From positions 1 to 64,000 of the forward strand of contig CAWCND010000022.1 of the NCBI GenBank assembly GCA_963796835.1: DNA of 64,000 nt. The letters are read 5' to 3'. Below are positions 25,317 to 42,745 of this stretch, piece after piece. Source of the stretch: Candidatus Aminicenantes bacterium. GTDB taxonomy: Bacteria; Acidobacteriota; Aminicenantia; Aminicenantales; Saccharicenantaceae. The notes below the pieces were generated by a model. The model did no database searches and was not told the DNA's origin. It worked only from the letters and a program-made list of their open reading frames with translations. Within the stretch, counting starts at the first letter, position 1. Every line of letters begins with the position of its first letter. The translations under genes were made by a program, and so were the position numbers.

Positions 25317-25373
25317 AGTTGACATGTATTTATAACTTATTGATATATATAAAGATAATATCGATGTGATCTT

Positions 25374-25395
25374 TCTACTTTTGAACAAAAGTAGA
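25374..25395. promoter_or_regulatory. Perfect 9-bp inverted repeat TCTACTTTT-gaac-AAAAGTAGA, ~60-80 bp upstream of the sigma-54 promoter. Candidate enhancer/UAS for PilR.
   Basis: Palindrome in the most AT-rich ~200 bp of the window. Position is appropriate for a bacterial enhancer-binding protein site. Confidence 0.4.
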
Positions 25396-25428
25396 CGATT
25401 ATTGTCTTTATGTGACATTTTTTGCCAT

Positions 25429-26844
25429 TTATCCATCGACCTTTTCCTCAAGAAGCGCCTTTTTGTCATTCTTCCTGACCTTGTTCAGGTTGTACTTCCC
25501 GATCAGGTAACGCATCGTCCTGTAGCTGATGCCGAGAAGCGGTGCGGCCTTCTGGATGCTCCCTGCCGTGGCCATGAGGGCCTGGCCGACGTAGTTCTTG
25601 GCCACGTCGTCGAGGTACCCCGTCAGGTTGAAACCCGGCTCGAAGAAGTAATTCGTATCGGGCTTGCCTTTCTGGGGGGAGACGACCTCCTTGGGCAGGC
25701 AGCCCACTGTCACGGTCTCCCTGTCCTCGATGGCCACGATCCGCTCGATGACGTTCTCGAGCTCGCGGATGTTCCCCGGCCAGGCATAGGCCTCGAGCAG
25801 CCCGATGACCTCGGGGGTGAATCTTTTGGTCTTCTTCCCCAGCCGGTCGCAGTGCTTCTGGAGGAAATGGGTCACGAGAAGGGGGATGTCCTCGGTCCGC
25901 TTCCGGAGGGGCGGCATGTCGAACGAGATGACGTTCAGCCGGTAGAACAGCTCCTCCCGGAACTTCCCCTCCTGGATCCTTTTCTTAAGGTCCTGGTTGG
26001 TGGCGGCGATGATCCGGACGTCGACCGGGATCTCTTCCGTTCCCCCGACCCGTCGGACCTGCCGCTCCTGGATGGCCCGCAGGAGCTTGACCTGGGTCCA
26101 GGGCGACATCTCGCCCACCTCGTCGAGGAAGAGCGTCCCCCGCTGGGCGACCTCGAACATCCCCTTCTTGTCGGCCACCGCCCCGGTAAAGGAGCCCCTG
26201 GTGTGGCCGAAGAGCTCGCTCTCGAGGAGGTTCTCCGGCAGAGCGGCACAGTTGATGGAGACGAACTGATGGTCGTGGCGGCCGCTCTGAAAATGGATGG
26301 CCCGGGCGGCCATCTCCTTGCCCGTCCCGCTCTCCCCCGTGACGAGGACGGTCGAGTCGGTGGAAGCCACTTTCTCGATCAGGATGTAGATCTCCTGCAT
26401 GGACCGGCTCTTGCCGATCATGTTCTCGAAGCTGTAGCGCTCCTTGAGGTCCCGCTTGAGGAGGATATTCTCCTGCCTGAGCCGGCGCTCGGCCAGTCCC
26501 CGGCCGACGATGATCTTCAGCTCCTCGACGTCGAACGGCTTGACGACGTAGTCCAGCGCCCCGGCCTTGAGGGCCTCGACGGCCTGGGCGATGCTTCCGT
26601 AGGCCGTGATCATGACCACCGGGACGTCCGGGTGATTCTCCCGGACGAGCTTGAGGACCTCCATGCCGTCGGTCTCGGGCATCTTGATGTCCGTCACGAC
26701 CAGGTCGATGTCGCCCTTTTCGAGGACATCGAAGCCCGCGGCCGCCGATTGCGCGGCCCTGACCCCGTAGCCTTCTTTCTTGAAAACGACCGAGAGGAGG
26801 TCGAGGAGGCTCTTTTCGTCGTCGATGATCAGGACGTTTTCCAT
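25429..26844 (-). CDS. pilR: Sigma-54-dependent response regulator, NtrC/PilR family (receiver + AAA+ + Fis-type HTH)
   Basis: Receiver domain (IIDDE...D). AAA+ sigma-54 activation domain with GESGTGKE and the GAFTGA-like ESELFGH motif. C-terminal HTH. Start taken at MENVLIIDDE. Confidence 0.85.
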   Translation of the reverse strand: MENVLIIDDEKSLLDLLSVVFKKEGYGVRAAQSAAAGFDVLEKGDIDLVVTDIKMPETDGMEVLKLVRENHPDVPVVMITAYGSIAQAVEALKAGALDYVVKPFDVEELKIIVGRGLAERRLRQENILLKRDLKERYSFENMIGKSRSMQEIYILIEKVASTDSTVLVTGESGTGKEMAARAIHFQSGRHDHQFVSINCAALPENLLESELFGHTRGSFTGAVADKKGMFEVAQRGTLFLDEVGEMSPWTQVKLLRAIQERQVRRVGGTEEIPVDVRIIAATNQDLKKRIQEGKFREELFYRLNVISFDMPPLRKRTEDIPLLVTHFLQKHCDRLGKKTKRFTPEVIGLLEAYAWPGNIRELENVIERIVAIEDRETVTVGCLPKEVVSPQKGKPDTNYFFEPGFNLTGYLDDVAKNYVGQALMATAGSIQKAAPLLGISYRTMRYLIGKYNLNKVRKNDKKALLEEKVDG

Positions 26845-28209: not shown

Positions 28210-29412
28210 TTAGAACTTCGAGATCAGGCTGAAGATCGGCAGGTACATGGAAACGACCAGGCTGCCGACGATCCCGCCGACGAAAATGAGCATGATCGGC
28301 TCCATGACCGAAAGAAGGGCCGCGACGCTCGTCTCGACTTCTTCATCATAGAAGCTCGCGAGCTTGCTGAGCATTTCGTCGAGCGTTCCGGTCGCTTCGC
28401 CGACGTTGATCATCTGGAGCATCATCAGCGGGAAACGGCCGGATTCCCGGAAGGCTTCGTTCATGGTCTTCCCTTCCGAGACGAGCTTCCGAGCGTCCAT
28501 GATCTCCTTCTCGATGAGGACGTTCCCCGCCGTCGAGGACGTGATCTTGAGGGCCTCGAGCATGGGCACGCCGCCGGAGATGAGGGTGCTCAGCGTCCGC
28601 GTCACGCGGGTCATGGCCACCTTGTAAAGGAGCGAGCCGAACAGGGGGATCTTCAACATCAGGCGGTCCGTGGTCCAGCGCCCCTGGGTCGTGTTGCGGT
28701 AATAACGGAACGCAAAGAACAGGCCGATGAGCCCGAGGAAGATAAAGAGGATGTAGTTCTGGACGAAATTGCTCAGCTTGATGATGACCGCGGTCAGGAG
28801 CGGAAGTTCGGCTCCCAGGTCCCGGAAGATCGAGGCGAAGACGGGGATGACCTTCCAGAGGAGGAAGATGCTCACCACGACCGCGAAGATCAGGATGGCC
28901 ACGGGATAGATCATGGCCTGCCGGACCTGGCCTCTCAGCTTGACGGTCCGTTCGATGTACTCGGCCAGGCGGCGGAGCATGACGTCGAGGGAGCCGCTCT
29001 GCTCGCCCGAAGCCACGAGGTTGCAGTAGAGGTCATCGAAGACCTTGGGGTGCTTCCGCTTGGCCTGGTTCAGGGTCGAGCCCGCCTCGACGTCTTCCTT
29101 GATGGTCCGGATGACGGTCCTGAAGTACTTGTTCTTCTGCTGTTCCTCGAGGATGCTCAGGCTCTGGATCAGGGGCAGCTCGGCGTCGATCAGGACCGAG
29201 AGCTGGCGGCTGTAAACGGCCAGTTCCTTGAGCCGGACCTTTTCCCGTTTCAGGAACGGGATCTGGAATCCCTTCTTGACGGGGGCGATGCTGGTGACCG
29301 TGATCTGGTCCTTCTGGAGGGCCCTCGTCAGCTCCTCGGTCGAGGCGGCGATCCGCTCGCCGCCCACCTGGTCTCCGTACCGGTTCTTGCCTTTCCATGC
29401 ATATGTCGGCAT
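28210..29412 (-). CDS. pilC: Type IV pilus assembly platform protein PilC (GspF family)
   Basis: About 400 aa with duplicated GspF-like domains and 3 TM segments. Opens MPTYAWKGKNRYGDQVGGE. Confidence 0.85.
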   Translation of the reverse strand: MPTYAWKGKNRYGDQVGGERIAASTEELTRALQKDQITVTSIAPVKKGFQIPFLKREKVRLKELAVYSRQLSVLIDAELPLIQSLSILEEQQKNKYFRTVIRTIKEDVEAGSTLNQAKRKHPKVFDDLYCNLVASGEQSGSLDVMLRRLAEYIERTVKLRGQVRQAMIYPVAILIFAVVVSIFLLWKVIPVFASIFRDLGAELPLLTAVIIKLSNFVQNYILFIFLGLIGLFFAFRYYRNTTQGRWTTDRLMLKIPLFGSLLYKVAMTRVTRTLSTLISGGVPMLEALKITSSTAGNVLIEKEIMDARKLVSEGKTMNEAFRESGRFPLMMLQMINVGEATGTLDEMLSKLASFYDEEVETSVAALLSVMEPIMLIFVGGIVGSLVVSMYLPIFSLISKF

Positions 29413-29442: not shown

Positions 29443-30552
29443 TCATTTCCTCGAGGATCCCGCCGCGGCCGGAATCTTGGTTCCCTCACGGCGCTGGATG
29501 ATATCGGTCAGCTCTTCGGGGAAGGACGAGACGCCCATCGCCATATCGAGACTGATCAGCTTCCGGAAATACAGGTTGGCCAGGGATTGGTTGAACGTCT
29601 GCATCCCGAACTTCTCCTGGCCCATCTGCATGGCCGAATAGATCTGATGGATCTTGTTCTCCCGGATGAGGTTCCGGATGGCCGGGTTCGGGATCATGAT
29701 CTCCATGGCCAGGACGCGGCCCTTGCCGTCGATCCGGGGCAGGAGGGCCTGGGTCAGGACCGCCTCGAGCGACATCGACAGCATGATCCGGATCTGGGTC
29801 TGGTACTGGCTCGGGAAGATGTCGATGATCCGGTTGATGGATTCGACGGCCGAGTTCGTGTGGAGAGTCGAGAAGGTCAGGTGGCCCGTTTCCGCGACCC
29901 GGAGCGTGGCCTCGACGGTTTCGAGGTCGCGCATCTCGCCGACGAGGACGACGTCCGGGTCCTCGCGCAGGACGGACCGCAGGGCGTTCCCGTACGACTG
30001 GGTGTCGCCGAAGAGCTCGCGCTGGTTGATGATCGCCTTCCTCGGCGAGAAGTAATACTCGATGGGGTCCTCGATGGTGATGACGTGGACGGCCCGCTCA
30101 TGGTTGATGTGCTCGATCATGCAGGCCAGGCTCGTCGACTTGCCGCAGCCGGTCGGCCCGGTGACGAGGACGAGGCCTCGGGGCAGGTAGCAGAGCTGTT
30201 GGACGCGCTGGGGGATCCCGAGCTGGGCGAAGCTCCACATCGTCGGGAGGAACCGGCGGAAGGCCCCCGCCACCGCGCCCTTCTGCATGAAGACGTTGGC
30301 CCGGAAGCGGCCGAGGTCCTTGACGCCGAAGGAGAAGTCGAGCTCCCACTTGTCCTCGAAGAGCTTCTTCTGCTTGTCCGTCATGATGCTGTAGATGATC
30401 TCTTTGGTTTCGGCGGGCGACAGGGGGGGGTGCTCGATGTCCTTGAGCATCCCGTGGACGCGGAGCCGCGGAGCGATGTATGTCGTGATGTGGAGGTCGC
30501 TCGCGTCGGCCTCCACGCATTCCTTCAGAAGCTCGTACATTGCTTTAGCCAT
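29443..30552 (-). CDS. pilT: Twitching-motility retraction ATPase PilT
   Basis: 369 aa. Walker A GPTGCGKST. PilT-typical AIRNLIRE motif. Confidence 0.85.
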   Translation of the reverse strand: MAKAMYELLKECVEADASDLHITTYIAPRLRVHGMLKDIEHPPLSPAETKEIIYSIMTDKQKKLFEDKWELDFSFGVKDLGRFRANVFMQKGAVAGAFRRFLPTMWSFAQLGIPQRVQQLCYLPRGLVLVTGPTGCGKSTSLACMIEHINHERAVHVITIEDPIEYYFSPRKAIINQRELFGDTQSYGNALRSVLREDPDVVLVGEMRDLETVEATLRVAETGHLTFSTLHTNSAVESINRIIDIFPSQYQTQIRIMLSMSLEAVLTQALLPRIDGKGRVLAMEIMIPNPAIRNLIRENKIHQIYSAMQMGQEKFGMQTFNQSLANLYFRKLISLDMAMGVSSFPEELTDIIQRREGTKIPAAAGSSRK

Positions 30553-30574: not shown

Positions 30575-32304
30575 TCATTCGTCCCGGACGGTCTCGCGCA
30601 GGACTTCCTCGACCGACGTGATCCCGCCCTTGATCTTGGTCAGCCCGCTCCGCCTCAGGGTCAACATCCCCTTCTCGATGGCCTTCTTTTTGATCTCGCG
30701 GGACTGGGCCCGGGAGAGGATCATCTCCCGGATGTCCTCGTCGATCTTCATGGCCTCGAAGAGGGCCGTCCGGCCCTTGTATCCGGTCTTGTTGCAGGCG
30801 TCGCAGCCTTTCGGCCGCAGGGCGTGCATCGCCCTTGAGCTCGTCTTTCCGGAAGCCCATTTCGAGCAGGGCGCTCTCGGGCAGGCTGTGGGGCTGGGCG
30901 CATTTCTTGCAAAGGCGGCGGATGAGCCGTTGGGCCACGATCGAGGATGACGGAGTCGGCGATCAGGAAGGGCTCGATGTTCATGTTGACCAGACGGGTG
31001 ATGGAGCTCGCGGCATCGTTCGTATGGATGGTGGAGAAGACAAGGTGGCCGGTCAGGGCGGCCTTGATCGCGACGTCCACGGTCTCCTGGTCGCGCATTT
31101 CGCCGACGAGCATGATGTCGGGATCCTGCCGCAGGAAGGTCCGGAGACAGGCGGCGAACGTCAGCCCGATCTCTTCCCGGATCGGCACCTGGTTGATTCC
31201 CTGGATGTTGAACTCGACAGGGTCTTCTGCGGTCATGATGTTCATGTCGAGCGAATTGAGGGTCGAGACGGCGGAGTAGAGGGTGTTCGTCTTGCCGCTT
31301 CCCGTCGGGCCCGAGACAAGGATGATCCCCCAGGGCCGGTGGATGGCTTCCTGGAAGAGCGCCAGGGACTCCTCCTCGAACCCGAGCTGGGTCAGGTCGA
31401 GCTTGAGCATCTCCTTGTCCAGGATCCGGGCGACGACCTTCTCCCCGCACATCGTCGGGATCGACGAGACGCGCATGTCGACTTCCTTCTTCTTGCCGTT
31501 ATCGAGCTTGACCCGCATCTTGATCCGGCCGTCCTGGGGGAGGCGCTTCTCGGCGATGTCCATGGTCGAAAGGATCTTGACCCGGGACACGACCGGGTTC
31601 CTGAACTTGAGCGGCAGGTTCACGATCTCGTAGAGGTCGCCGTCGATCCGGTACCGGACGCGGAAGGTGTTTTCGTAGGGTTCGAAGTGGACGTCGCTCG
31701 CCCCCTGCTTGACGGCGTCGATGAAGGTCTGGTTGACGAGCTTGATGATCGGGGCCTCTTCGGCCTCGGCTTCGAGCTCGTGGAGGTCGGTTTCCTCCGG
31801 CTCCACCTCGACGATATTGATCCGGCCCTCATCGGCGAGCTCGATGTCCTCGACGATCTTCTTGACCCGGATGCTGTCGGTCGAGCCATAGTACTTGTTG
31901 ATGGCGTTCATGACGCCGGACTCGGAGGCGATGACGGGCTGGATGCTGAGGCCCGTCCGGAACCGGATGTCCTCGATGACCTCGAGGTCCGTCGGGTCGA
32001 CCATGGCCAGGGTCAGGAACGTCCGGATCCGGTGGATGGGCATGACCGAGTACTTCTTGGCCACATCGTTGGGGATCAGGTTGATGACCTCGGGATAGAC
32101 CTCGAACTGGTCGAAGTCGATGTAGGGATAGCCGAGCTGGCGGCTCAGGGCCTGGGCGATCTCCTCTTCAGAGATGTAGCCGAGCTGGACGAGAGACGTG
32201 CCGACAGGCAGGCTGTTCTTCTTCTGGAAATCGCTCGCGGCCTTCAGCTGGTCGGCCGTGATGATCTTCTCTCTTAACAGAAGTTCGCCCAGGTTAGATG
32301 CCAT
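30575..32304 (-). CDS. pilB: Type IV pilus assembly ATPase PilB (GspE family). C-terminal third interrupted by two apparent frameshifts (~30945 and ~30835).
   Basis: N-terminal GSPII_E_N domain (MASNLGELLLREKIITADQLKAA...). Walker A GPTGSGKT. The tetracysteine tail ...LAQRLIRRLCKKCAQPHS...CDACNKTGYKGRTALFE... is in two other frames. Confidence 0.8.
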
Positions 32305-32326
32305 TTTTAAATCCCAATCTTACGGG

Positions 32327-32346
32327 TTTTGACAACTCCTGTCAAA
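32327..32346. promoter_or_regulatory. Perfect inverted repeat TTTGACA-actcc-TGTCAAA, 23 bp upstream of the pilB ATG. Possible operator and/or -35 of a pilB promoter (rc gives TTGACA, 17-nt spacer, TAAGAT).
   Basis: Palindromic sequence overlapping a -35-like hexamer on both strands. Confidence 0.3.
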
Positions 32347-32620
32347 CCTTTTAGTCTCCCAATCGGGCCCTTTTTACTAACGTTCGCGGCCCCTTTTTTT
32401 CTCTGTAAGGTCCGATGATTACTGAGGGGCATATCCACGGCTCCGATGAGGCCCAGTTTCTCCGATGAGCCATTTTCCGTCAATCACCGGGGGTGAGCAT
32501 AGGCTGGGTGAAATTTACAAATTTTGTCTCACCCCCCGCGGCGAGATGGGTCCCCTTTTCCGGGGTTAGGGACGGACCGCCAAAGACGGCAGCGGATGGG
32601 ATCTCCTCATGATGGGAAAC

Positions 32621-32665
32621 GCGCGCCTGGAGGGAATCGAACCCCCGGCCCGCGGACGAGAAGGC
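32621..32665. repeat. Degenerate copy (copy C) of the 3' ~45 nt of tRNA-Arg: T-arm plus acceptor 3' strand
   Basis: GCGCGCCTGGAGGGAATCGAACCCCCGGCCCGCGG... The reverse complement reads ...GGGCCGGGGGTTCGATTCCCTCCAGGCGCGC. Closely related to the copy at 34921-34971 and to tRNA 39335-39407. Confidence 0.6.
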
Positions 32666-32704
32666 CGCCGAGCCGCCTTCTCAGGAGATCATTCGTGGCT
32701 AGCT

Positions 32705-34801
32705 CTACTTCGGGCTCTTCAAGTACTTGTCGAACCACGCCAAGAACCGTTCCAACCGCTCGCGAATGTAGCTCGGACGCGTGAGCAAATGGTATTGGCC
32801 CGGATAGACCACCAGCTGCGTGGGAACGCCGAGAGTTTTCAGCGCCTGGTACATCTGCTCGCTGCCGATGATCGGGACATTGAAATCTTTTTCGCCGCCG
32901 ATAAACAGGGTGGGGGTCTTGATCCGGTCGGCTCGGAAGAACGGGTAGGAGACACGGACCCACGCGTCCGCAGCCTTCCAAGGCAGGCCGATTTCCTCCT
33001 CGTACTGCCGGATGTACTGGTCGCTCCCGTACATCGATAGTTGCAGGGCGCTGCCCGCCCCGCTGATGGCGGCCTTGAACCGGGTGTCCGTCGCGATCGT
33101 GTAGTCCGTCAGGATGCCGCCGTAGCTCCAGCCGCCTATGCCGAGCCGGCCGGGGTCCGCGATCCCCTTCCGCACAGCATCGTCCACCCCGGCGAGCAGA
33201 TCGGCGACCTCTTTGTTCCCCCAGTCGGCGAGGATGCTCCGCGTGAACTCGGCGCCACGCCCGCTGCTGCCTCGATAGTTGATCGCCAGAACGACATAGC
33301 CGTGCGCCGCAAAGAACTGCCGCTCGAGCTGCAGCGGATAGAGATCGAACAGAAGCGCATGGTCGTCCTGCATGGTCGGGCCGCCGTGGATCCACACCAG
33401 CGTAGGAAATTTCTTCCCAGCCTCATACGAGGGTGGCTTGACCATCAGGCCATGGATTTCCGTTCCGTCCTTGCTCGGGAAGCTGATGTCTTCGACGACG
33501 CCCAGCTGCCATTCGGCAAGAAGAGCGTCGTTGTGCGCGGTCAGTTTGCGCAGTTTTCCGTTCTCGAGCGCGTAGATCTCCGTCGCCGACGAATCCGTCG
33601 CCGCCGCGACAACCGTATGCCCGCCGCCGCTCGCGCGCTTACTGGGGACGGCGCTGCCGTCGCTGATGGGCTCCACGCTGCCGCCCCCGACGGCAATCTT
33701 CCCGAGATACGCACGCCGGTCGTCTTCCACCAAGATGGTCAGGGCGGAACCGTCCAGAGTGAATTCGGGCTGGGACACCCGACGGTCGAGCTTGGCGGTG
33801 AGTGTCCGCGGCTCGCCACCCGTAGCCGGCACGACGGCCAGCCGATCAACGTTGTAGAAATTGAACTTCGACTCAAAACCCTGGAGGAAGGCAAGCATCC
33901 GGCCGTTCGGGCTCCAGACCAACCGCTGCTCGTCCGGCCGGCAGATGGTGAGTAGCTTTCGCGGCTCGGCCCCGGCGCGCGCCGCGGCGATAAAGATATC
34001 GGTCGTCCCGGTCTGATCGGGCTCCTTCGCATGATTGCTGATAAAGGCGAGCTGCGACCCGTCCGGCGACCAGGCCGGATCGCTTTCATCAAAATCCTGG
34101 TCGGTGGTCAGCGCTTCCAGCTTCTTGCTTTCGACCTCGAAGAGGTAAAGATGATTGCGGGACGAAGCGGTGAGATAGCCCTCGATGTCCCGTTTAAAGA
34201 GGTACCGATCGATGACGATCGGCTTCGGCGCCTTGGCTTTGGAATCGCGAACTCCTCCCGAATCCTCGCCACTGTCCCGCATGACGAGCACGAGCCGCTT
34301 GCTGTCCGGCGACCATTCATAGCCGCCAATCTCACCTTTAACGCTCGTCAACTGACTCGCTTCGCCGCCACGTCGATCGAGGAGCCAGATCTCCGCCTTT
34401 CCCTCGGCGGGACGGGCGGAAAGGAACGCCAGATGCCTTCCATCGGGGCTCCAGCGCGGCATGGCGTCCGAGTCGGGCCCATTGGTGATCTGGAGATCCT
34501 CGGTGCCTTCCCAGTTGACCATCCAGATCGCGCTCCGCAGCTTGTCGGCCTCGCGGTCTAAGATCGTGACAGTGTAGGCGGTCCACTTTCCGTCCGGCGA
34601 AACTTGCGGATTTCCAATCTCCTGAATGCGGTACACATCGTCAGCGGTGAGCGGGCGTTTCGCGGGAGCTTGGGCGAAGAGAGGAATGGCCCAAAGCGAA
34701 AGACAAATGGTGATCAGCAAAACAAAATATGAAGATCTGTCCTTTCTCCGAGCGGCCTGGATGATCATGGATGTCCTCCTTTTTTCGGCTCCCGTCGTCA
34801 A
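32705..34801 (-). CDS. S9-family serine peptidase (acylaminoacyl-peptidase / DPP-like) with N-terminal beta-propeller. Secreted.
   Basis: Signal peptide. TolB-like propeller repeats (SPDGKW..., SPDGRHLAF). Catalytic GGWSYGG (GxSxGG) in the C-terminal alpha/beta-hydrolase domain. Confidence 0.8.
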   Translation of the reverse strand: MTTGAEKRRTSMIIQAARRKDRSSYFVLLITICLSLWAIPLFAQAPAKRPLTADDVYRIQEIGNPQVSPDGKWTAYTVTILDREADKLRSAIWMVNWEGTEDLQITNGPDSDAMPRWSPDGRHLAFLSARPAEGKAEIWLLDRRGGEASQLTSVKGEIGGYEWSPDSKRLVLVMRDSGEDSGGVRDSKAKAPKPIVIDRYLFKRDIEGYLTASSRNHLYLFEVESKKLEALTTDQDFDESDPAWSPDGSQLAFISNHAKEPDQTGTTDIFIAAARAGAEPRKLLTICRPDEQRLVWSPNGRMLAFLQGFESKFNFYNVDRLAVVPATGGEPRTLTAKLDRRVSQPEFTLDGSALTILVEDDRRAYLGKIAVGGGSVEPISDGSAVPSKRASGGGHTVVAAATDSSATEIYALENGKLRKLTAHNDALLAEWQLGVVEDISFPSKDGTEIHGLMVKPPSYEAGKKFPTLVWIHGGPTMQDDHALLFDLYPLQLERQFFAAHGYVVLAINYRGSSGRGAEFTRSILADWGNKEVADLLAGVDDAVRKGIADPGRLGIGGWSYGGILTDYTIATDTRFKAAISGAGSALQLSMYGSDQYIRQYEEEIGLPWKAADAWVRVSYPFFRADRIKTPTLFIGGEKDFNVPIIGSEQMYQALKTLGVPTQLVVYPGQYHLLTRPSYIRERLERFLAWFDKYLKSPK

Positions 34802-34900
34802 AGACGATAAAATATCATTGATTCGGCTGTCAAGTCGCGCTCAGAGAGCGGAATGCAGAGTCGCGACAGATCTGGAGTGCCCGGGATGAGGGCAAGAGGG

Positions 34901-34971
34901 CAGATTTCTCGGGGAATAAGAGAGCGCGCCTGGGGTGAATCGAACCCCCGGCCCGCGGCTGAGAAGGCAGG
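34901..34971. repeat. 71-bp direct repeat (copy A): 3' ~47 nt of tRNA-Arg(TCT) from the anticodon loop onward, plus 25 nt of 3' flank
   Basis: gcagatttctcgGggaataagagagcgcgcctggggtgaatcgaacCcccgGcccgcGgctGagaaggcag. About 66/71 identical to 39310-39380. Confidence 0.8.
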
Positions 34972-35151
34972 CATGCTTCTTCCTTAACGGCGGTAGAATT
35001 AATCGAGTCCAAGTTCTCCGCTAGATGATGGGCTAAGAATTGCGCATAAGGATGCACCCATCGGCCGAGAATGTTCTCCTTTTCTTGACACCGTTCCGAA
35101 GAAGGCGCTATCTTCCTTAATACAGATCGTTCCCAGTCCGAGAGGTGCGTC

Positions 35152-36489
35152 ATGCGGATTTTGAGGTCCATCGTCTTCATCCTTATCACCCAGCTTCTTC
35201 TCCCTCGCCCGGTCCTGCCGCAAGCTGCTAAGCCAGACTCTGAGTTCTTCCAAAAAATCCGGTCCCTGCCCGGCGTCGTCGAAGTTCGAGCAGCGCATTT
35301 CGATGACAAGTCGTTCCGTGAAGCCTGCGAGGTCATGTACGAGCAGCCCGTCGACCATCCGAACCCGACCTCGCTTAAGTTCCACCAACGAATCTTCGTC
35401 TCACACGCCGGCTTTGACAAGCCTGTCGTCCTCGTGACCGAGGGCTACGCGGCCTTCGGGAACAGGGCCGGGGAGCTGACGCGCCTCCTCGGCGCCAACC
35501 AAGTCAGTGTCGAGCATCGTTTCTTCGGAAAATCTGTTCCCTCGTCGCTCGACTGGGACGCCTTGACCATCCATCAATCCGCCGACGATCTCCACGCCAT
35601 CGTCCAAGCGTTGAAGGCGCTCTATCCGGGTAAGTGGATCAGCACGGGCGCCAGCAAGGGGGGACAGACGGCCCTGTTTTACAAATGCTTTTATCCGGAC
35701 GATGTGGACGCCACCGTCACGTATTCAGCGCCTGTCAATATCGCCCAGGAGGACCCCCGGATCTACCAGTTCCTCCAGACGGTCGGTGACGAAGCGACGC
35801 GGGCGAGGATCAAGGATTATCAAAAGGCGTTGTTCCGGAGAGAAGATGAGTTGATGCCCCTGGTCAAGAGCTGGGCCGATAAAATGAAGTGGACGATCAG
35901 CCTGGGATTAGCAGACGCCTACGAGTATGGCGTACTGGAATACCCCTTGGCGTTCTGGCAATTTGGGTCCTTCAAGCCCTCGGACATCCCCGCGCCCGAC
36001 GCACCGGTCACGGCGTTATTCGATCATTACAAAAAGATCAATACGTTCTTCTTCTATACGGACCAAGGCCAAAAGGCTTTTGAACCCTTCATGTACCAGG
36101 CGTTCAGCGAGATCGGCTACTACAACTATGATATTTCCGATTTCAAGGACGCCATGAAAGCTCTGAAACGACCAACCAACACCGTCCTCTGCCCCAAAGG
36201 GGTCAAGATCGTCTTCAACCCCTCCACCATGGACCGCGTGTACCGCTTTCTTCAGTATGAGGCCGACCACGTCATCTACATCTACGGCGAGTTCGACCCC
36301 TGGGCCTCGACCCAGATCCAGCTGATCGGACGGACCGACGCGGTCAAGATCGTGGTCAACGGCGGCCACCATGGCGTCGGCATCAGCGACTTCACGCCGG
36401 ACCAGCGGGAATCATGCTATGCGAGCCTGGAGAAGTGGTTGAACCTGAAACTGTCTCGGACCGGACGCAATCGGGCGCCCAGGCCCTAA
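35152..36489 (+). CDS. S28-family serine peptidase (prolyl-carboxypeptidase/DPP7-like alpha/beta hydrolase). Secreted.
   Basis: Signal peptide. S28 N-terminal signature EQPVDHPNPTSLKFHQRIF. Nucleophile elbow GASKGG. Confidence 0.6.
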   Translation: MRILRSIVFILITQLLLPRPVLPQAAKPDSEFFQKIRSLPGVVEVRAAHFDDKSFREACEVMYEQPVDHPNPTSLKFHQRIFVSHAGFDKPVVLVTEGYAAFGNRAGELTRLLGANQVSVEHRFFGKSVPSSLDWDALTIHQSADDLHAIVQALKALYPGKWISTGASKGGQTALFYKCFYPDDVDATVTYSAPVNIAQEDPRIYQFLQTVGDEATRARIKDYQKALFRREDELMPLVKSWADKMKWTISLGLADAYEYGVLEYPLAFWQFGSFKPSDIPAPDAPVTALFDHYKKINTFFFYTDQGQKAFEPFMYQAFSEIGYYNYDISDFKDAMKALKRPTNTVLCPKGVKIVFNPSTMDRVYRFLQYEADHVIYIYGEFDPWASTQIQLIGRTDAVKIVVNGGHHGVGISDFTPDQRESCYASLEKWLNLKLSRTGRNRAPRP

Positions 36490-36521
36490 GAGAAACCCGC
36501 CATGACAAGAGGAGCGTAACG

Positions 36522-39044
36522 ATGAAGAACCGGAATTGGATGTCAATCCTATTCGGACTGCTGGCCCTGATCCTCGGGACGACGCCAGGACCGGCCGCCG
36601 TCGATCAAGCCCCCAAAGATCTGGTCTGGCCTCGCCCGGTGCCCTGCCGGATCCAGGACGGAGCGAACAAGGACATTTTCGTTATCACTCTGGGCGCCGT
36701 CGACACACCGCTCGCCACCGGGATTTTCAATCCATCCGCTGACGAGGTCCGGTTAAACGATGGGACGGTCATTAAGGACTATTTCCGGGTTCGTCTGGGA
36801 GTCAAGTATTTCAAGCCAATCGATAAGAACCGGTTTCTGGTCCCCCCGTCGGGGTGGTGTTCCTGGTATTACTACTACAAGGATGTCAGCGAGGACGAAG
36901 TCCTCTTGAATGCCCGCTGGATCGGCGCGAACCTCAAGGATTATGGAGCGAGATACGTTCAGATCGACGACGGCTGGCAAGGCTACGGTAAGGGCGGCGC
37001 GCGCGACTGGACGACTCTGAGCGAGAATTTCAAGAACGGCATGGGCCGCGTCGCGGCGGGCATCAACTCTTTCGGGTTGACACCCGGCATCTGGATAGCG
37101 CCCCATGGGCAGAGCAACCAAAATGTCGTCCGGAGCGCGAAGGACATCTTCCTGCTCAAAAAGGACGGAACGAGCGCCTCAAAGACCTGGGAAGGAGATT
37201 ACCTGGTTGATCCCTCGAATCCCCGGTCAAGCCAATACCTGAAAGACCTGTTCGCGACCCTGGTTGGTTGGGGCTACGATTACTTCAAGATCGACGGCCA
37301 GCCGATCGTGATGGACGAATACCGTACGAAGAGCGCTTTTATGAAAAAGAAGGGTGGGGATCCCGAGATCCTCTATCGAAGAACCCTGGAAAGTATCCGC
37401 GGGGCCCTTGGCCCCGATCGCTATCTCCTCGGCTGCTGGGGCATCCCGCTGGAAGGCGCGGGGATCATGAACGGCTCCCGAACCGGGGGGGATGTCGTCC
37501 TGGGCTGGGAGGGGTTTCTGGGCGCCTTCGGCGCCACTATGGAGTATTATTACCAGCACAACATCGTCTGGTATACGGACCCGGACGTTATGTTGCTCCG
37601 TCCCCCCCTGCCGATTGAGCAAGCGAGAGCGTGGGCGACGCTGCAGGGCCTGACGGGGCAAGCTCTATTCGCGAGCGACCGGATGCCTGACCTCCCCGAG
37701 AACAGGGTCGAAATCCTGAAGCGGGTCTTCCCGGCAGTGGACGCCAGGCCCCTGGATCTCTTCCCGTCTCCGAAGTCCAAGCGGATTTGGGACCTCAAGA
37801 TCCGCCACCTCAGCCGGGTCTACGACGTCGTAGGTCTGTTCAATATCGGCCAGTCCGCGGCCGAGACAACCCTGCTCCGATGGGCGGATTTGGGCCTCCC
37901 CGACAAGAAACCCGTCCATGTCTTCGATTTTTGGAATCACGAATACCTCGGCGCTTGGAAGACTGGAATAGCCGTAGATGTCCCTCCGGCCGCGTGCCGC
38001 GTCCTCACTCTTCTTCCTGCATCCGACGAGATCCAGATCATTTCGACGAGCCGCCACGTCACCCAGGGGTGGGTGGACCTCATCACGCTCAGCTCCGAGG
38101 ACGGAGGCCGGCATTTCAAGGGGGCCAGCCATCTTGTTAAGGACGACCCATACGAACTCCGCTTCGCTTTCCCCCTTGGCCGGAATTTCGCCGTCAAGAG
38201 CGCGTCGGCGAGGGACGCCTCGGGAGAGTTGCCTGTCGAAGTCTTCGACCATCAAGGATGGTCCGCCGTACGCATCCGGCCGGCGCGAACGGACGACGCC
38301 GATTGGGAAGTATCCTTCGAACCGGCTGGCTCCTACAAGTTCGCGGTCCGAGAGCCGTCAGGAATCAGGGTGCAGAGGCGCGGCCTAGACGGTGTTGACC
38401 TAGAGTGGAATCCCCAGTATTACCTCAACGCTGGCTACGAGGTTTTTGTCAACGGGTCGCTCGCTGGCTATACACCAAGAGCTTCGTTCCCGCTGCGCGG
38501 CCTGGACCCGAACGCGTCCTATGCGGTCGAGGTCCGGACCGTCTGGGACGACGGTTCAGTAAGCCCCAAGGCGGCGATCACGACGTTCAGGCCGGCGGTG
38601 CTGATGCCGGAGGAAATCCCAATTGCCGAGCTCGAGCCGTCGCGAACGGCCTCAGACACCAAGGGCCTCCCGCCCGAGTGGGTTTTATCCCATAGGCCTT
38701 TCATGGTGAACGGCCGACGATTTGACGCCGGCCTCGGCCTGCGGTCAGGTTCGGAAGTCGAATATGACCTCAAGGGATTATTCGCAACCTTCCTGGCCGA
38801 GGTGGGCGTCGACGATTCAAGCCCCGAAATGAAGGACCCGGAGGCGCTCGAGTTTTCCCTGGTCGGGGATGGGAAGATCCTCTGGGCAAGCGGACCGGTC
38901 CGAAAATCGGATGGGCTGAAGCGGGTTGAAATTCCGGTCTCGGGAGTCCGCGCCCTCGTCCTCAGGGTCGCCGGGGGTGGCGCGGCGCGCACCTGGCGGC
39001 GCCCTCAAGGTGATTGGCTGAATGGCAAACTCCTGAGGCGATAG
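36522..39044 (+). CDS. Clan GH-D glycoside hydrolase (GH27/GH36-like alpha-galactosidase / alpha-N-acetylgalactosaminidase) with Fn3-like and C-terminal NPCBM carbohydrate-binding domains. Secreted.
   Basis: GAGGAG RBS. Signal peptide. GWCSWYYY...YVQIDDGWQ catalytic-region motif. C-terminal NPCBM-like segment (FDAGLGLRSGSEVEYDLKGLFATFLAEVGVDD...VEIPVSGVRALVLRV). Confidence 0.65.
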   Translation: MKNRNWMSILFGLLALILGTTPGPAAVDQAPKDLVWPRPVPCRIQDGANKDIFVITLGAVDTPLATGIFNPSADEVRLNDGTVIKDYFRVRLGVKYFKPIDKNRFLVPPSGWCSWYYYYKDVSEDEVLLNARWIGANLKDYGARYVQIDDGWQGYGKGGARDWTTLSENFKNGMGRVAAGINSFGLTPGIWIAPHGQSNQNVVRSAKDIFLLKKDGTSASKTWEGDYLVDPSNPRSSQYLKDLFATLVGWGYDYFKIDGQPIVMDEYRTKSAFMKKKGGDPEILYRRTLESIRGALGPDRYLLGCWGIPLEGAGIMNGSRTGGDVVLGWEGFLGAFGATMEYYYQHNIVWYTDPDVMLLRPPLPIEQARAWATLQGLTGQALFASDRMPDLPENRVEILKRVFPAVDARPLDLFPSPKSKRIWDLKIRHLSRVYDVVGLFNIGQSAAETTLLRWADLGLPDKKPVHVFDFWNHEYLGAWKTGIAVDVPPAACRVLTLLPASDEIQIISTSRHVTQGWVDLITLSSEDGGRHFKGASHLVKDDPYELRFAFPLGRNFAVKSASARDASGELPVEVFDHQGWSAVRIRPARTDDADWEVSFEPAGSYKFAVREPSGIRVQRRGLDGVDLEWNPQYYLNAGYEVFVNGSLAGYTPRASFPLRGLDPNASYAVEVRTVWDDGSVSPKAAITTFRPAVLMPEEIPIAELEPSRTASDTKGLPPEWVLSHRPFMVNGRRFDAGLGLRSGSEVEYDLKGLFATFLAEVGVDDSSPEMKDPEALEFSLVGDGKILWASGPVRKSDGLKRVEIPVSGVRALVLRVAGGGAARTWRRPQGDWLNGKLLRR

Positions 39045-39309
39045 GAAATAACCGTCCTTTCGACCGCACCCCGGATCCTGGTCTAAAAAGGACGCTGGAT
39101 TCTTATGTTGGAATCGGCGTCCGAGAAAGAGGCGAGGATAAAGGAATTATGATTCCTAGAGGCTCAGATGGGTCAACAGCCAGATTTCTTCCTTATGCCT
39201 TCGACTCGCCACGGCTACGGTGCTCAATTGTGCCCCGTGGATGCCTCAAGCCGTGCAAGGCTGTACAAAATTGCGACAATTTTCGCATGACGGGGATGAT
39301 ATCTCAATG

Positions 39310-39380
39310 GCAGATTTCTCGAGGAATAAGAGAGCGCGCCTGGGGTGAATCGAACACCCGACCCGCTGCTTAGAAGGCAG
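39310..39380. repeat. 71-bp direct repeat (copy B), overlapping the 3' part of the intact tRNA-Arg(TCT) and 25 nt downstream of it
   Basis: Counterpart of 34901-34971. Confidence 0.8.
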
Positions 39381-39407
39381 CTGCTCTATCCCCTGAGCTA
39401 CAGGCGC
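39335..39407 (-). tRNA. tRNA-Arg (anticodon TCT)
   Basis: Minus-strand sequence GCGCCTG TA GCTC AGGGGATA GAGC A GCTGC CTTCTAA GCAGC GGGTC GGGTG TTCGATT CACCC CAGGCGC G. 73 nt with a canonical cloverleaf. CCA not encoded. Confidence 0.9.
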
Positions 39408-39503
39408 GTCATGGATGATCAAAGCCGGGGCCGCGAAAGCCGTCCCGGCCTTCCCGGCCGGGCGCTCTATCGCAGGGCCGGTCGCTTTTTCGCGGGGAGC
39501 CAA

Positions 39504-39578
39504 TCGGGGAGAGCGGATTTGAACCGCCGACCTCCTGCTCCCAAGGCAGGCGCGCTAGCCAGGCTGCGCCACTCCCCG
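39504..39578 (-). tRNA. tRNA-Pro (anticodon TGG)
   Basis: Minus-strand sequence CGGGGAG TG GCGC AGCCTGGCTA GCGC G CCTGC CTTGGGA GCAGG AGGTC GGCGG TTCAAAT CCGCT CTCCCCG A. 75 nt. G37 as expected for Pro. Confidence 0.85.
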
Positions 39579-39658: not shown

Positions 39659-41407
39659 TTATCGGCGCATCCCCTTGTCGATCTGGGATCTGCCCACCTT
39701 CACGACGATCGGCCGGCCGTGCGGGCAAAGGGCGGGCTGGGACGATTTGAAAAGCTCGTCCACGAGATAGCCCATTTTTTCCCGGGTCAGCGGCTGGCCC
39801 GCTTTGATGGCTGTTTTGCAGGCCAGCGTCGCCAGGAACTTCTCGCGCCTGTCCCGGGCATTCGCCTGTTCCGCCTCCTCGAGCAGGGCTATAAAAACAT
39901 CCGCGGCCTCCTCGGCCCGGAAGACGCCCGGGTACTCCTTGAGGGCGAAGGACCGGCCGCCCATGGCCTCGGCCCGGAACCCGAGCTCCTCGAAAAGCAA
40001 GGCGTTCTCCTCGAACGCGACGGCCTCGGACGGCGAAAGCTCCAAGAGGGCCGGGATGAGGAGGGTCTCCCGGGGCCAGAGCTTCCGGCGGTCGATCTCC
40101 CGGAACTTGTCGAAGAGGATGCGCTCATGGGCGTTGTGCTGGTCGATGACCAGGAGGCCGTCCTCCGCGCTCGCGACGATGTAGAGGTTCTGGAACTGGC
40201 CGAGAACCTCGGGGCCCGTTCCGGCCTTCTCCGGCCCGCCGAAGGTTGGAGCGGCCGGACCGGCCGAGAGAACGGGCTCCCAGGCCGTCGGACCGGATCC
40301 TTCTCTCGCCGCTTCGCCCCCCTGCCCGGGCTCGAGACCCGGCATGGGAACGGACTCCTCCGCGACGCCATGAGGGGTGGCGGTCACGGCCGGGACCGGA
40401 TAGACGTCCTTGACCGTATGCTCCTTGAGAGTCCCGTGTTCCACGGCCCTGAGAACGAGCCGGAAGACGAGCTGGGAGTCCTTGAACCGGACCTCGGCCT
40501 TGGCCGGATGGACGTTGACATCGACGTCGCCGTATGGAAGCGTGATGAAGAGGAATGCCTCGGCCGACCTGTTCCGCTCGAGGATCCCGGTGTACGCCTG
40601 GTTGAGGGCGGCTTGGAGGATGCGGTCCTTGACCGGCCGGCCGTTGACGAAAAAATGCTGGACGGAACGGTCCGTACGTCCCCGCAGCGGCCGCGACGAA
40701 TAGCCGGAGAGCCGGCCCTCCCCTTCCGCTCCCGCGACCTCCATCAGGCCGTCCACGACGTCCTTTCCGTAGAGCTGGAAGATCCGGTCCTTCAGCGCGC
40801 CGACCGGCGGGCAGTTGATCGTCTCCCGCGTCCCGTGGACGAGGACGAAGCGGACGCTCGGATGCGACAGGGCGGCCAGCGTCAGGTATTTGGTGATCAG
40901 GCCGACCTCGGAGGAGCTCGACCGAAGGAATTTCCGCCGGGCGGGCAGGTTGAAGAACAGGTCGCGGACCTCGACCGCCGTCCCCCGCGGGAAGGCGATG
41001 TCCGTGACGGCCACGAGCTTTTCCCCTTCTCGCTCGATCAGGGTGCCGCGATCCTCGGTCCCGTCGAACGTCCTCAGGGAGAGCCTCGAGACGGCCGAGA
41101 TGCTGGCCAGGGCCTCACCGCGGAAGCCGAGGGTCGAGATCCTCTCCAGGTCCTCCTCGGCCAGGATCTTGCTCGTCGAGTGGCGCCGGAAGCAGAGGGC
41201 GGCATCCTCCCGGCTCATCCCCGACCCATTGTCCTGGACCTTGATCGAGCGCTTCCCGCCGTCGAGGAGTTCGACCCGGACATCGGTCGCTCCGGCGTCG
41301 AGGGAATTTTCGACGAGCTCCTTGACGACGGACACGGGCCGCTCGATGACCTCGCCGGCCGCGATCTTCTGGGCGATCTCCGGGGCCAGGATATGTATCT
41401 TCTTCAT
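39659..41407 (-). CDS. mutL: DNA mismatch repair protein MutL
   Basis: N-terminal GHKL ATPase motifs (IAAGEVIERPVSVVKELVENSLDAGAT, ...GTTV). 582 aa. C-terminal dimerisation domain. Confidence 0.9.
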   Translation of the reverse strand: MKKIHILAPEIAQKIAAGEVIERPVSVVKELVENSLDAGATDVRVELLDGGKRSIKVQDNGSGMSREDAALCFRRHSTSKILAEEDLERISTLGFRGEALASISAVSRLSLRTFDGTEDRGTLIEREGEKLVAVTDIAFPRGTAVEVRDLFFNLPARRKFLRSSSSEVGLITKYLTLAALSHPSVRFVLVHGTRETINCPPVGALKDRIFQLYGKDVVDGLMEVAGAEGEGRLSGYSSRPLRGRTDRSVQHFFVNGRPVKDRILQAALNQAYTGILERNRSAEAFLFITLPYGDVDVNVHPAKAEVRFKDSQLVFRLVLRAVEHGTLKEHTVKDVYPVPAVTATPHGVAEESVPMPGLEPGQGGEAAREGSGPTAWEPVLSAGPAAPTFGGPEKAGTGPEVLGQFQNLYIVASAEDGLLVIDQHNAHERILFDKFREIDRRKLWPRETLLIPALLELSPSEAVAFEENALLFEELGFRAEAMGGRSFALKEYPGVFRAEEAADVFIALLEEAEQANARDRREKFLATLACKTAIKAGQPLTREKMGYLVDELFKSSQPALCPHGRPIVVKVGRSQIDKGMRR

Positions 41408-42745
41408 GTTCTGACGACCTCACCTTCTGTCGAACGCTCTGAAACCCGGGTGATGCGAACCCGGACGATCTCCCGTCTCGGCGCCGGGCATGACGGAACC
41501 CGGACCCTGATATAATTGCCGGTCAACACTTCCGCTAATCCTTCCCTGCCATTTTTCGCGTCCAAGGGCATACCCGGCTCCTCCCTTTCTGCCTGCCACG
41601 GGCCTCCATCGCCCCTCCCGATGACAACCGCTTGGAGGTCCTGCCCCAGGAAGGAGGCCCGGAACCGCAGGTTTTTTTCCGCGGAGAGCTTGCGGAGGGC
41701 TTGCGACCGCTCCCTCTTGAGCCGCTCCGGGACCTGGGGCATCGCCGCCGCCGGCGTCCCCGCGCGCGGCGAATAGGGGAAAACGTGAAAATATGTCAGC
41801 GGCGACCGCGAGAGGAATTCTTCGAGAAGGGCGAAGTCGTCGTCCGCCTCCCCGGGGAACCCGACGATGACATCGGCGCCAAGAGACGCCCCGGGCGACC
41901 GGCCCTTGAGGTCGGAGAGGATGGACTGAGAGATCTCCGGTCCGGCCGACCGCCCCATTTTTTCGAGGACCCGGCTTGAAGCGTGCTGGAACGATAGATG
42001 GAAATGCTGGCAGATCTTCGGATTTCCGGCGATGTGGGCCACGAGGGCCCCGTCCGTTCGCCGCGGGTCCAGGGAGCTCAGCCTGACCCGGCCCAGGCCC
42101 TCCGCGTTCTCGATCACGCGGAGAAGCCCGGGCAGGGAACCTCTCGGCTCCAGGTCCTCGCCGTAGGACGATAGATGGATCCCGGCCAGGACGATCTCCC
42201 TGTACCCGGCCCGGATGAGGTCCTGGACGCGGGCCAGGACGCGGGCCTCGCCAAGGCTCGCGCTTCTTCCCCTGACGCTCGGGATGACACAGAACGCGCA
42301 CCGGTCATCGCACCCGTCCTGGACCTTGAGAAGCGCCCGGGAGCGGAACGCGACGTCCTCCGGGCCGGCCATCCCCGGCTCCGCCCTTTCGTCAGGCCCT
42401 GTTATTCCGGCGAGCGCGAGGACCTTTCCCGGCAGGCCGGCCTTCCCGCTGTTGGGGACGACGAGGAGGACCTGGGGAATGGCCTCTATCTCGTGCCGGG
42501 CCCGCTCGGCATAGCAGCCCGTGACGACGAGCTTGGCCGCAGGGTTTTCGCGCGTGACCTTCGGATGAATTCCTGACGTCCCGGTCGGCCCGGCCGGTCA
42601 GCGTGCAGGAGTTGACGAGGACGAGGTCGCTCCGGGCCGAGTCGTCCTCCAGCCGCAGCCCGCCCTTCCGGAAGGCTTCGGCCCAGGCGAAAGCCTCGGC
42701 CTGGTTGACGCGGCAGCCGAAGTTCTGGATGGAGAAGGAGGGCAT
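41404..42745 (-). CDS. Radical-SAM methylthiotransferase, MtaB/MiaB family. Apparent frameshift near 42570.
   Basis: N-terminal MTTase domain (FGCRVNQAE...VNSCTLTG). Radical-SAM CDDRCAFCVIP. ATGA overlap with mutL. Confidence 0.75.

Follow-up and report, generated by a model that had tools for sequence, protein, structure and literature searches.

Integron gene cassettes (attC x attI, IntI), integrative mobile elements exploiting Xer recombination (IMEX elements) and pdif modules (XerC/D) are small, rely on a separately encoded recombinase, have recombination sites at their boundaries, and are stacked in arrays and exchanged between replicons. The stretch analysed here, 64,000 nt of contig CAWCND010000022.1 from a Candidatus Aminicenantes bacterium (the window), holds stacked genes at a tRNA gene. 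Aminicenantes are abundant, uncultured degraders of organic matter in sediment and peat. In the window, the 7-kb interval between tRNA-Arg(TCT) and pilB contains three hydrolase genes together with direct copies of the 3' part of the tRNA gene. The reading favoured here, with a probability of about 0.6, is that this interval is a two-unit array of recombinase-free cassettes, serially inserted in a site-specific manner at the 3' ~48 nt of the tRNA gene and probably mobilised in trans. It would account for the strain-variable 7-kb insert, and the functional tRNA-Arg would be a chimera, the 3' half of which arrived with the last cassette.

The closest described relatives are cis-mobilisable elements (CIMEs), which lack integration and transfer genes and keep the attachment (att) sites attL and attR, as in the elements related to ICESt1 and ICESt3 of Streptococcus thermophilus (PMC5704250). 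CIMEs, like the window cassettes, are strung one behind another at a single attachment site in the 3' end of a gene, with chimeric internal att junctions. Their recombinase is supplied by another element, and the same may be proposed, by analogy, for the window cassettes. The window has no integration or transfer genes; attL and attR are represented by cores and arms matching a family-wide unit, those of copies 2 and 3 being degenerate or truncated. In contrast, CIMEs adjoin or derive from identifiable integrative and conjugative elements (ICEs) or integrative and mobilisable elements (IMEs), while no integrase-bearing partner is seen here in at least 120 contigs. The arrays also reach five sites, the cassettes span 0.3–8 kb, and the host is an uncultured lineage of Acidobacteriota. 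There are no conjugation genes, and cis-mobilisation by conjugation would here be hypothetical.

Tycheposons of Prochlorococcus integrate at specific tRNA genes, including Arg-tct and Pro-tgg, and carry an inward-facing integrase and replication hallmark genes; in the islands they build, neighbours are separated by partial tRNAs, newcomers push older elements inward, and cargo reflects niche adaptation (bioRxiv 10.1101/2020.12.28.424599). The window shares with them a specific tRNA gene with partial copies flanking adaptive cargo. No inward-facing integrase is present at either end in the window (Pfam, phmmer, tblastn), nor are primase- or helicase-type hallmark genes, the cargo there consisting of three hydrolase genes. 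In the Aminicenantes units, unlike tycheposons, most junctions still have the two conserved arms even though there is no integrase.

In the Islander scheme, a full tRNA gene (tDNA) and a displaced 3' fragment in direct orientation delimit an island, and an attP of ~250 bp holds the tDNA fragment. Integrase-less candidates are rejected, every member of a tandem array needs its own integrase, and only 4 arrays of three or more islands occur among 3919 islands (PMC4383910). The window has the full tRNA, a same-orientation 3' fragment on the correct side and a length within 2–200 kb, and no integrase by Pfam, phmmer or tblastn. The Aminicenantes unit of ~260 bp agrees with this ~250-bp attP, and its fragments, which start at the anticodon stem, correspond to the 'A' (anticodon-centred) class (PMC4383910). 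Integrons, IMEX elements and pdif modules stand further away. The sites here come from a tRNA 3' half and have lambda-like arms, and are neither attC hairpins nor dif. The window has no intI with attI, no attC hairpins and no tyrosine recombinase, and its sites are not palindromic. No integrase gene adjoins the array start, and the cassettes have their own promoters and lie in either orientation. The locus fits a known kind, that of CIME-like recombinase-free cassettes at a tRNA gene, now in Aminicenantes; the unusual part is the family-wide absence of an integrase together with well-kept attP-like units.

The tRNA-derived repeats and their arms

The tRNA genes were called with ARAGORN and scored with Rfam, and both lie on the minus strand of the window. 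The intact tRNA-Arg(TCT) (39334–39407, 67.0 bits) has the T-stem GGGTG/CACCC, and its conserved upstream neighbour is tRNA-Pro(TGG) (39504–39578, 64.1 bits). The att core occupies the 3' ~48 nt of the tRNA-Arg gene (39334–39381). Core copy 2 (34924–34971, minus strand) covers tRNA positions ~26–73 and has a T-stem GGGGG/CACCC with one G.A mismatch. Copy 3 (32621–32669, minus strand) has GGGGG/CCCTC, the commonest form in Aminicenantes. Core-to-core distances are 4410 and 2303 nt. With tRNA-Arg on the minus strand, the two fragments are situated beyond its 3' end, on the downstream side, which is the geometry of tRNA-targeted integration.

A preliminary description of this DNA, which gave no strand for the tRNA, had proposed three copies of the tRNA-Arg(TCT) 3' segment in one orientation, and a repeat search (32621–32665, 34924–34968 and 39334–39378) and base-by-base counts confirm them. 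The tRNA and copy 2 match at 43 of 48 core positions and at 24 of the adjoining 25 nt, bearing out the ~71-bp repeat described earlier; the repeat search extends the pair to 115 nt at 80% identity (34856–34970 with 39266–39380). The tRNA and copy 3 agree at 39/48 core positions, copies 2 and 3 at 42/48, and the 5' half of the tRNA is not duplicated (8–10/26 matches at the copies). With a degenerate 43-nt pattern allowing up to 3 mismatches, the three copies are the sole matches on both strands of the 64 kb, for a chance expectation of 0.00 in dinucleotide shuffles. The T-stem changes said to be common to the two distal copies are also present: both have GGGCCGGGGG, unlike the functional tRNA.

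The T-stem of the functional tRNA recurs in its close relatives L126, L202 and L125 (related loci and metagenome contigs are given L numbers) and in some cassette cores, and the hybrid stem of copy 2 is found in pristine form in L157 and L108. The tRNA and copy 3 stems differ by paired changes, which fits a swap of the whole tRNA 3' half for cassette-borne sequence. T-stem hybrids (GGGGG/CACCC and others) were considered as proof of crossover in the T-loop and set aside as not decisive, each being one substitution from a parental form.

A metagenome collection was scanned for the pattern of T-loop, acceptor and CTCYC, and all family counts rest on the at least 120 contigs recovered. They hold at least 205 sites: at least 42 full tRNAs, at least 125 fragments with an anticodon arm and at least 38 shorter fragments. 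Among the matches listed, a contig has 1–5 sites, the full tRNA always first and then up to four fragments, spaced 287–8320 nt apart (median 2.6 kb); orientation is almost uniform, five contigs having one inverted copy. The preliminary description had allowed that the repeats might be a dispersed family unrelated to tRNA; they belong instead to a tRNA-derived att family. Conservation across this family extends ~95 nt upstream of the fragments and ~115–125 nt downstream of all sites, where it starts with CTCTCTkTTTCCCCGAGAAA. The resulting attP-like unit of ~260 bp is composed of right arm, core and left arm.

Both arms bear GAGCACA-type boxes (the motif is also written GAGCACAAT). In 113 fragments there are 99 matches at -80 to -61 from the core start and 30 matches at 92–111 nt past the core end, all confined to one strand, with nearly none at other positions. 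The upstream box is present in 68% of fragments and 8% of full tRNAs, against a background of 12%. Such strict placement on both arms across divergent lineages would point to selection for protein binding. The footprint in the window is likewise an attP-like unit, arm sequences accompanying every copy, and more than a tRNA segment alone.

The arms in the window are preserved to different degrees, and all lie on the minus strand. The left (attL) arm of cassette 2 (39217–39333) begins with CTCTCTTATTCCTCGAGAAA and has GGGCACAATTGAGCAC at 39220–39235, that is 99–114 nt past the tRNA end, in agreement with the family box peak at +92 to +111; the 107 nt past the tRNA are 86.5% identical to those past fragment A of the relative L081. 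The right arm of cassette 2 (34972–35052) is degenerate, its GAGCACA boxes mutated to ATGCGCA and TAGCCCA, and together with the core it is 74% identical to the right arm and core of L081 fragment C. A partial left arm of cassette 1 (34857–34923) accounts in its first 25 nt for the 24/25 matches to the arm past the tRNA, and the core plus arm at 34863–34970 shares 86% identity with the unit that precedes the S9 peptidase orthologue in L209. At copy 3, a right-arm remnant of ~35 nt (32670–32704) abuts the S9 stop codon; its GAGAAGGCGGCTCGG resembles GAAAAGACGGCTCGG of L081 unit A. The NlpC/P60 gene and the full right arm that L081 has near copy 3 are missing from the window. The idea that the left arm is simply the 5' end of kinase genes was rejected: kinase starts lie a variable 60–520 nt from the core, and the zinc-ribbon coding sequence is unlike the arm.

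The commonest cargo of the family is a Ser/Thr kinase with an N-terminal CPxC...C..C zinc ribbon (at least 34 genes in at least 30 contigs, 32 of the 34 co-oriented with the tRNA). Some array kinases also have TPR, AAA_16 or cyclase domains (e.g. L125:232-2745, L197:2401-6906). Other recurrent cargo comprises S41/Tricorn, S9 and S10 peptidases, beta-lactamase-fold hydrolases, sulfatases, GH106, fucosidases, SnoaL/DUF4440 and DUF1579. These families were re-clustered from non-overlapping gene calls, clusters of stop-to-stop open reading frames (ORFs) having been mostly antisense artefacts. Among the matches listed, gene orientation within cassettes is mixed (204 plus, 150 minus), with own promoters.

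Two arrays, in L163 (760–802, 4729–4750) and L089, start at a full tRNA-Arg(CCT), followed by a fragment with CCGAGAAA-type flank, so the att family uses more than one tRNA-Arg isoacceptor. Many contigs break within a few bases of the core, ending there (L007, L011, L014) or starting there (L086, L101, L165, L173, L179, L181, L187, L189). Such breaks suggest that strains vary at the repeat and that assemblies are systematically interrupted there; being caused by the cores, they bear on the completeness of metagenome-assembled genomes (MAGs) at the tRNA-Arg locus.

Variable cargo between fixed flanks

The order mutL, tRNA-Pro, tRNA-Arg is shared by 14 Aminicenantes species representatives. The genes pilB-pilT-pilC on one side and rSAM-mutL-tRNAPro-tRNAArg on the other form fixed flanks, and the interval between them ranges from 0.25 kb to more than 17 kb. 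It is empty in L010, where tRNA-Arg lies 252 nt from pilB. In L002 there is no cargo and the tRNA pair is inverted (11772–12110), with tRNA-Pro 453 nt from pilB and the tRNA-Arg 3' end 70 nt from mutL. The preliminary description had proposed looking for relatives lacking the 32.7–39.3 kb segment, with tRNA-Arg abutting a flank, and these two genomes are of that kind. Elsewhere the distance from tRNA-Arg to pilB is 1.9 kb with HD-GYP/PAS (L008), 3.6 kb with a 476-aa ORF of no known family and HD-GYP/PAS (L009), or 4.7 kb with a glycosyltransferase (L006). In L001, L012 and L013 pilB is not within 10 kb, and the contents are peptidases, RND efflux and DUF5677/DUF4238, respectively. The same flanks surround unrelated cargo of differing length in L008, L009, L006, L083 and L081. 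Secreted hydrolases and kinases have repeatedly entered Aminicenantes genomes at the tRNA-Arg locus.

The DNA past copy 3 aligns with the DNA past the full tRNA-Arg of L010 and with the pilB leaders of L006, L008, L009 and L081, and copy 3 holds the position of the intact tRNA in L010. Copy 3 therefore marks the original tRNA 3' end, and it follows that all DNA from copy 3 to the present tRNA was inserted. On the opposite side, L126, L202 and L125 are ~90.5% identical to the window at the nucleotide level up to 39217–39220, ~115 nt past the tRNA, where homology ends. Beyond it they carry an S9-like peptidase, a restriction-endonuclease-like gene, an IS3 element or a Ser/Thr kinase.

Another close relative is L081 (NCBI GCA_049512315.1), 91.8% identical over the pil genes and 88.5% over S9. 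Its order is fragment A, unrelated cargo (ORF307/DUF4440/SnoaL), a degenerate tRNA-Arg(CCG)-like sequence, S9, NlpC/P60, fragment C and pilB. Fragment C, the orthologue of copy 3, is a pristine copy of tRNA positions 27–73, and it lacks three substitutions that copies 2 and 3 have in common. A homologous non-tRNA stretch of ~95 nt with GAGCACAATTCCGAGCACATCAT stands before each of fragments A and C, and the same sequence, in degenerate form, precedes window copy 2 (the cassette 2 right arm above). In L209, a 373-kb contig, a complete unit of right arm, core and left arm (9366–9620) precedes the S9 orthologue. Around them lie a TetR/RND efflux operon and genes for flavodoxin and aldo-keto reductase, and a full tRNA is absent for 10 kb. 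Two readings fit: an array of great length, or a cassette that was translocated.

A tRNA-Arg(CCG)-like pseudo-tRNA (L081:5654-5727; Rfam 29.0 bits, acceptor and T stems mismatched) stands where the window has copy 2. Similar CCG-like pseudo-tRNAs occur in L107 (site ~1023) and L197 (site ~8362). In all of them the T-arm, the 3' strand of the acceptor and the flank are those of the tRNA-Arg(TCT) att family, and recombination with a second tRNA-Arg gene may have produced them.

Exchange of a whole cassette is seen in three contigs from one wetland study, with the orders mutL-tRNA-X-core-Z (L164), tRNA-X-core-Y (L191) and tRNA-Y (L094). X is 99.5% identical between L191 and L164, and divergence begins 16 nt past the core. 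The 4.8-kb cassette Y is 99.98% identical between L094 and L191 over 4816 nt, starting from the first core base, while the mutL genes of L094 and L164 are only 80.8% identical. Near-identical Y in such backgrounds indicates recent transfer between divergent genomes, with junctions at the core; at least one cassette, itself free of an integrase, has thus moved very recently.

Neighbouring arms of one array resemble each other no more than arms paired at random do (median 0.56 vs 0.57), three arrays being exceptions, which argues against insertion by homologous recombination over long homology. Campbell-type homologous insertion with duplication of the arm is ruled out as a general rule by the same figures. 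In the three exceptional arrays, adjacent core-plus-left-arm repeats are ~100% identical over at least 100 nt: L151 (5209, 11738), L204 (5819, 12348) and L173 (118, 4688). In L151 and L204 near-identical kinase genes follow both copies, and these look like recent cassette duplications.

Recombinase, order of events and alternatives

Recombinases were sought by phmmer and tblastn in 1.06 Mb, made up of the window, 15 related loci, L081–L084 and 120 metagenome contigs. The five probes were E. coli XerD, lambda Int, Hin and a pair of viral-contig integrases. The XerD probe was validated on PDB 1A0P (E = 2.4e-190), and it also detects IntI4, XerH and a mycobacteriophage integrase. As a positive control, the probes find integrases beside unrelated tRNA-Arg genes in viral contigs, in agreement with Pfam. 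In the 1.06 Mb there is no recombinase ORF or pseudogene trace, the best match (E = 0.016) being noise. Pfam on all ORFs finds no recombinase in the tRNA-Arg–pilB interval, phmmer and tblastn find none in the 64-kb window, and recurrent unknown proteins beside the arms give no recombinase signal even at E <= 1. A scan of viral contigs gave 0 matches to the junction pattern, 1 match to the right-arm pattern (unrelated and low in GC), and 3 matches to the tRNA-core pattern, 2 of them with integrases, beside tRNA-Arg genes with a different acceptor stem. IS3-family (rve) transposase genes do occur inside arrays of relatives (L081:1-108, at the contig start; L202:87-893); they were rejected as candidates for the att recombinase, being ordinary insertion sequences. 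The preliminary description had stated that no integrase, excisionase or other mobility gene remains. Its absence of an integrase holds in the window and across the family. The word 'remains' implies loss; family-wide absence without pseudogene traces fits cassettes that depend on a recombinase encoded elsewhere.

The earlier proposal of serial tRNA-targeted insertions without integrase is supported by the variable locus, the position of copy 3 and the att family. In the mechanism proposed here, an incoming cassette would carry a ~260-bp attP-like unit, consisting of a right arm with two GAGCACA boxes, the core (tRNA ~26–73) and a left arm whose GAGCACA boxes lie ~100 nt beyond the core. On recombining with the tRNA gene, the cassette would rebuild an intact tRNA from cassette-borne sequence and displace the previous tRNA 3' half, with any earlier cassette, towards pilB. 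Starting from a tRNA-Arg beside pilB, the S9 cassette would have been inserted first, its distal core (copy 3) coming to rest on native pilB upstream DNA. The cassette with the S37 peptidase and glycoside hydrolase (GH) genes would have followed at the regenerated tRNA, hence its tRNA-proximal place. Decay would have followed, with cores 2 and 3 acquiring substitutions, arm boxes mutating, and the NlpC/P60 gene disappearing along with most of the right arm at copy 3. Given the mutated boxes at copy 2, the ~35 nt of right arm left at copy 3 and the substitutions in both distal cores, the two window cassettes are probably now fixed.

A fixed core start, position-fixed arm repeats, strict orientation, a regenerated tRNA and core switches together point to recombination of the tyrosine-integrase type. 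As no cassette has a recombinase or a trace of one, the simplest reading would be action in trans, by analogy with CIMEs (PMC5704250). The enzyme would most likely be a tyrosine integrase whose gene lies elsewhere or is carried by a rare autonomous partner. The question of the recombining enzyme is made concrete by units that are conserved while an integrase is absent from more than 1 Mb.

Several observations weigh against this account. An integrase able to act on these sites was not found in the 1.06 Mb, which bears on the proposed catalysis in trans, and no ICE or IME partner with the same att specificity was found in the at least 120 contigs or in the viral collection; the metagenome contigs are short and break at cores, and an autonomous partner of large size could systematically escape them. 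Only 45–58% of sites have a recognisable left arm, and cassette Y, recently moved as it is, has almost no consensus left arm, which is odd if both arms are needed. CCG/TCT hybrid pseudo-tRNAs in the arrays misfit a simple crossover in the anticodon loop, and since the cores are identical the crossover position is not mappable. The S37-GH module is 90.7% identical in L084 with no att site nearby, and 83.2% identical in L083, inside a 17.7-kb tRNA-Arg-to-pilB interval with no internal fragments, so that cargo also moves or persists without att sites. The left junction of the S9 cassette differs between the window and L081, showing that rearrangements outside the cores occur.

Among the alternatives, the one that survives best, though it is unlikely, is that these are decayed classical islands or prophages whose own integrases were later deleted, leaving cargo between att remnants. 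Textbook tDNA islands end in this way, as do tycheposon-built islands, for which fragmented integrases and partial tRNAs in scattered positions are reported (bioRxiv 10.1101/2020.12.28.424599), and the CIME definition itself describes an element without integration genes that keeps attL and attR (PMC5704250). The degenerate window arms, with one right arm truncated, fit as well. However, decay would have to have erased every integrase ORF and pseudogene trace from 1.06 Mb holding at least 205 sites, where the probes that find integrases beside unrelated tRNA-Arg genes reach no better than E = 0.016. The cassettes are also compact (median 2.6 kb), the window genes fill the space between the arms, and even the 99.98% identical cassette in divergent hosts is integrase-free.

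Slightly less probable is RecA-dependent homologous exchange, for example after natural transformation, in which no site-specific recombinase acts at present, core and arms serve as portable homology, and the att-like unit merely survives from an integrase system of ancient date. Cores that are identical across genomes with ~19% mutL difference would offer islands of perfect homology, type IV pilus genes adjoin the locus, and cargo occurs with and without att sites. The empty recombinase search and the three arrays with ~100% identical adjacent core-plus-arm repeats of more than 100 nt are also as expected from such exchange. Against this, adjacent arms generally resemble each other no more than random pairs do, and the core of ~47 nt, usually all that is shared, is short for efficient RecA exchange; the GAGCACA boxes keep strict positions on both arms across divergent lineages, and fragments start at one tRNA position and always run in one direction. 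That the distal copies are pseudogenes from a local tRNA-Arg duplication or decayed paralogues, with no mobile DNA involved, is very improbable and already contradicted: ARAGORN does call tRNA-Arg(CCG) and tRNA-Arg(TCT) at equivalent L081 positions, but with scores of 29.0 and 37.1 bits, and with stems mismatched or the D-arm absent, such calls are weak, fragments share one start and a non-tRNA right arm (68% vs 12% background), and cassettes differ exactly at cores in near-identical backgrounds and move between species.

Within the reading of trans-mobilised cassettes, a wider proposal, less likely than not, may be offered tentatively: a dedicated, integron-like gene-capture system of Aminicenantes, in which a separately encoded recombinase stacks and swaps cassettes at tRNA-Arg(TCT) and tRNA-Arg(CCT). 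It would involve hundreds of small recombinase-free cassettes (secreted peptidases, glycosidases, sulfatases, Ser/Thr kinases), each with a ~260-bp attP-like unit centred on the 3' half of tRNA-Arg, and a flow of degradative and signalling genes between species only ~80% identical in housekeeping genes. Should many cassettes share a stand-alone recombinase, Aminicenantes would have an analogue of integrons anchored at a tRNA gene, useful also as a marker for gene flow in metagenomes.

Cargo genes, composition and flanks

Cargo and flanking genes were assigned with Pfam on ORFs. Cassette 1 (32705–34856, minus strand, including the promoter region) carries an S9 prolyl-oligopeptidase-family peptidase with a PD40 propeller. 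The ORF spans 32705–34801 with a probable start at 34768 (687 aa), preceded by its own promoter region (34802–34856), and the 687-aa protein P0001 is 100% identical to it. The edges of the module are 34856 and 32704, and homology to L081 (88.5% at the nucleotide level) and L209 (87%) stops exactly at the stop codon. Cassette 2 carries, on the plus strand, a serine peptidase (35152–36489; Peptidase_S37 6.7e-66, S28 4.7e-18) and a GH27/36-like glycosidase (36414–39044; Melibiase, Melibiase_C and a C-terminal NPCBM, 4.8e-21). The probable start of the latter at 36522 gives 840 aa, the length also of its homologues. The two genes form a 3.98-kb module (35073–39050) with sharp boundaries. All three cargo proteins have signal-peptide-like N-termini as judged by eye, without a predictor. 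The genes named in the preliminary description (S9; S28 plus GH27/36-NPCBM) agree with Pfam, except that the S28 gene scores best as Peptidase_S37.

The cassettes had been described as AT-richer than their flanks. This is true of the S37/GH cassette (57.4% G+C for S37, z = -2.2 among 43 ORFs; 60.6% for GH) but not of the S9 gene, which at 61.6% equals pilB. The flanks have ~62% on the pil side and 64–69% on the mutL side. Tetranucleotide distance to the window mean is highest at 35.5–37.5 kb (z = 2.84, the window maximum), and S37 has both the lowest GC and the greatest tetranucleotide distance in the window. Only the tRNA-proximal S37/GH cassette is compositionally atypical, and moderately so.

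Best matches of the cargo in other phyla, which it had been suggested to look for, are not found: they lie in Aminicenantes and Acidobacteriota, indicating that the cargo is not foreign to the phylum. There are dozens of S9 homologues at 88–70% identity; GH has a few at 92–80%, one Aminicenantales protein at 69%, and then ~59% in other Acidobacteriota. These searches of S9 and GH rule out a cross-phylum origin, and MAGs with the label Candidatus Aminicenantes or Aminicenantales supply the closest relatives of MutL, S9 and GH.

The flanking genes, assigned by Pfam and synteny, are all on the minus strand. The conserved distal flank has pilB (T2SSE ATPase, 30748–32304), pilT (29443–30552) and pilC (28210–29412), and the proximal flank has mutL (39659–41407), followed by a radical-SAM gene (41404–42372) assigned by Pfam. 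The native pilB upstream region (32305–32620, minus strand), recognised by alignment with relatives, lies outside the insertions and has the conserved boxes GGGGTGAGACAAAA, GGTGATTGAC and TTGACA..TTGTCA. A GC-rich hairpin occupies the spacer between tRNA-Pro and tRNA-Arg (39412–39478). Its match to Twister-sister (23.1 bits against a gathering score of 34, E = 0.26) is regarded as noise, and Rfam over the region and over L081 and L083 reports only tRNAs, the Twister-sister, tmRNA and miRNA matches being below threshold. Further away, at 25000–25750, the GC content falls to 45–48%; by synteny with L081 (pilS, pilR, N_methyl pilin), this is probably the region of a type IV pilin gene.

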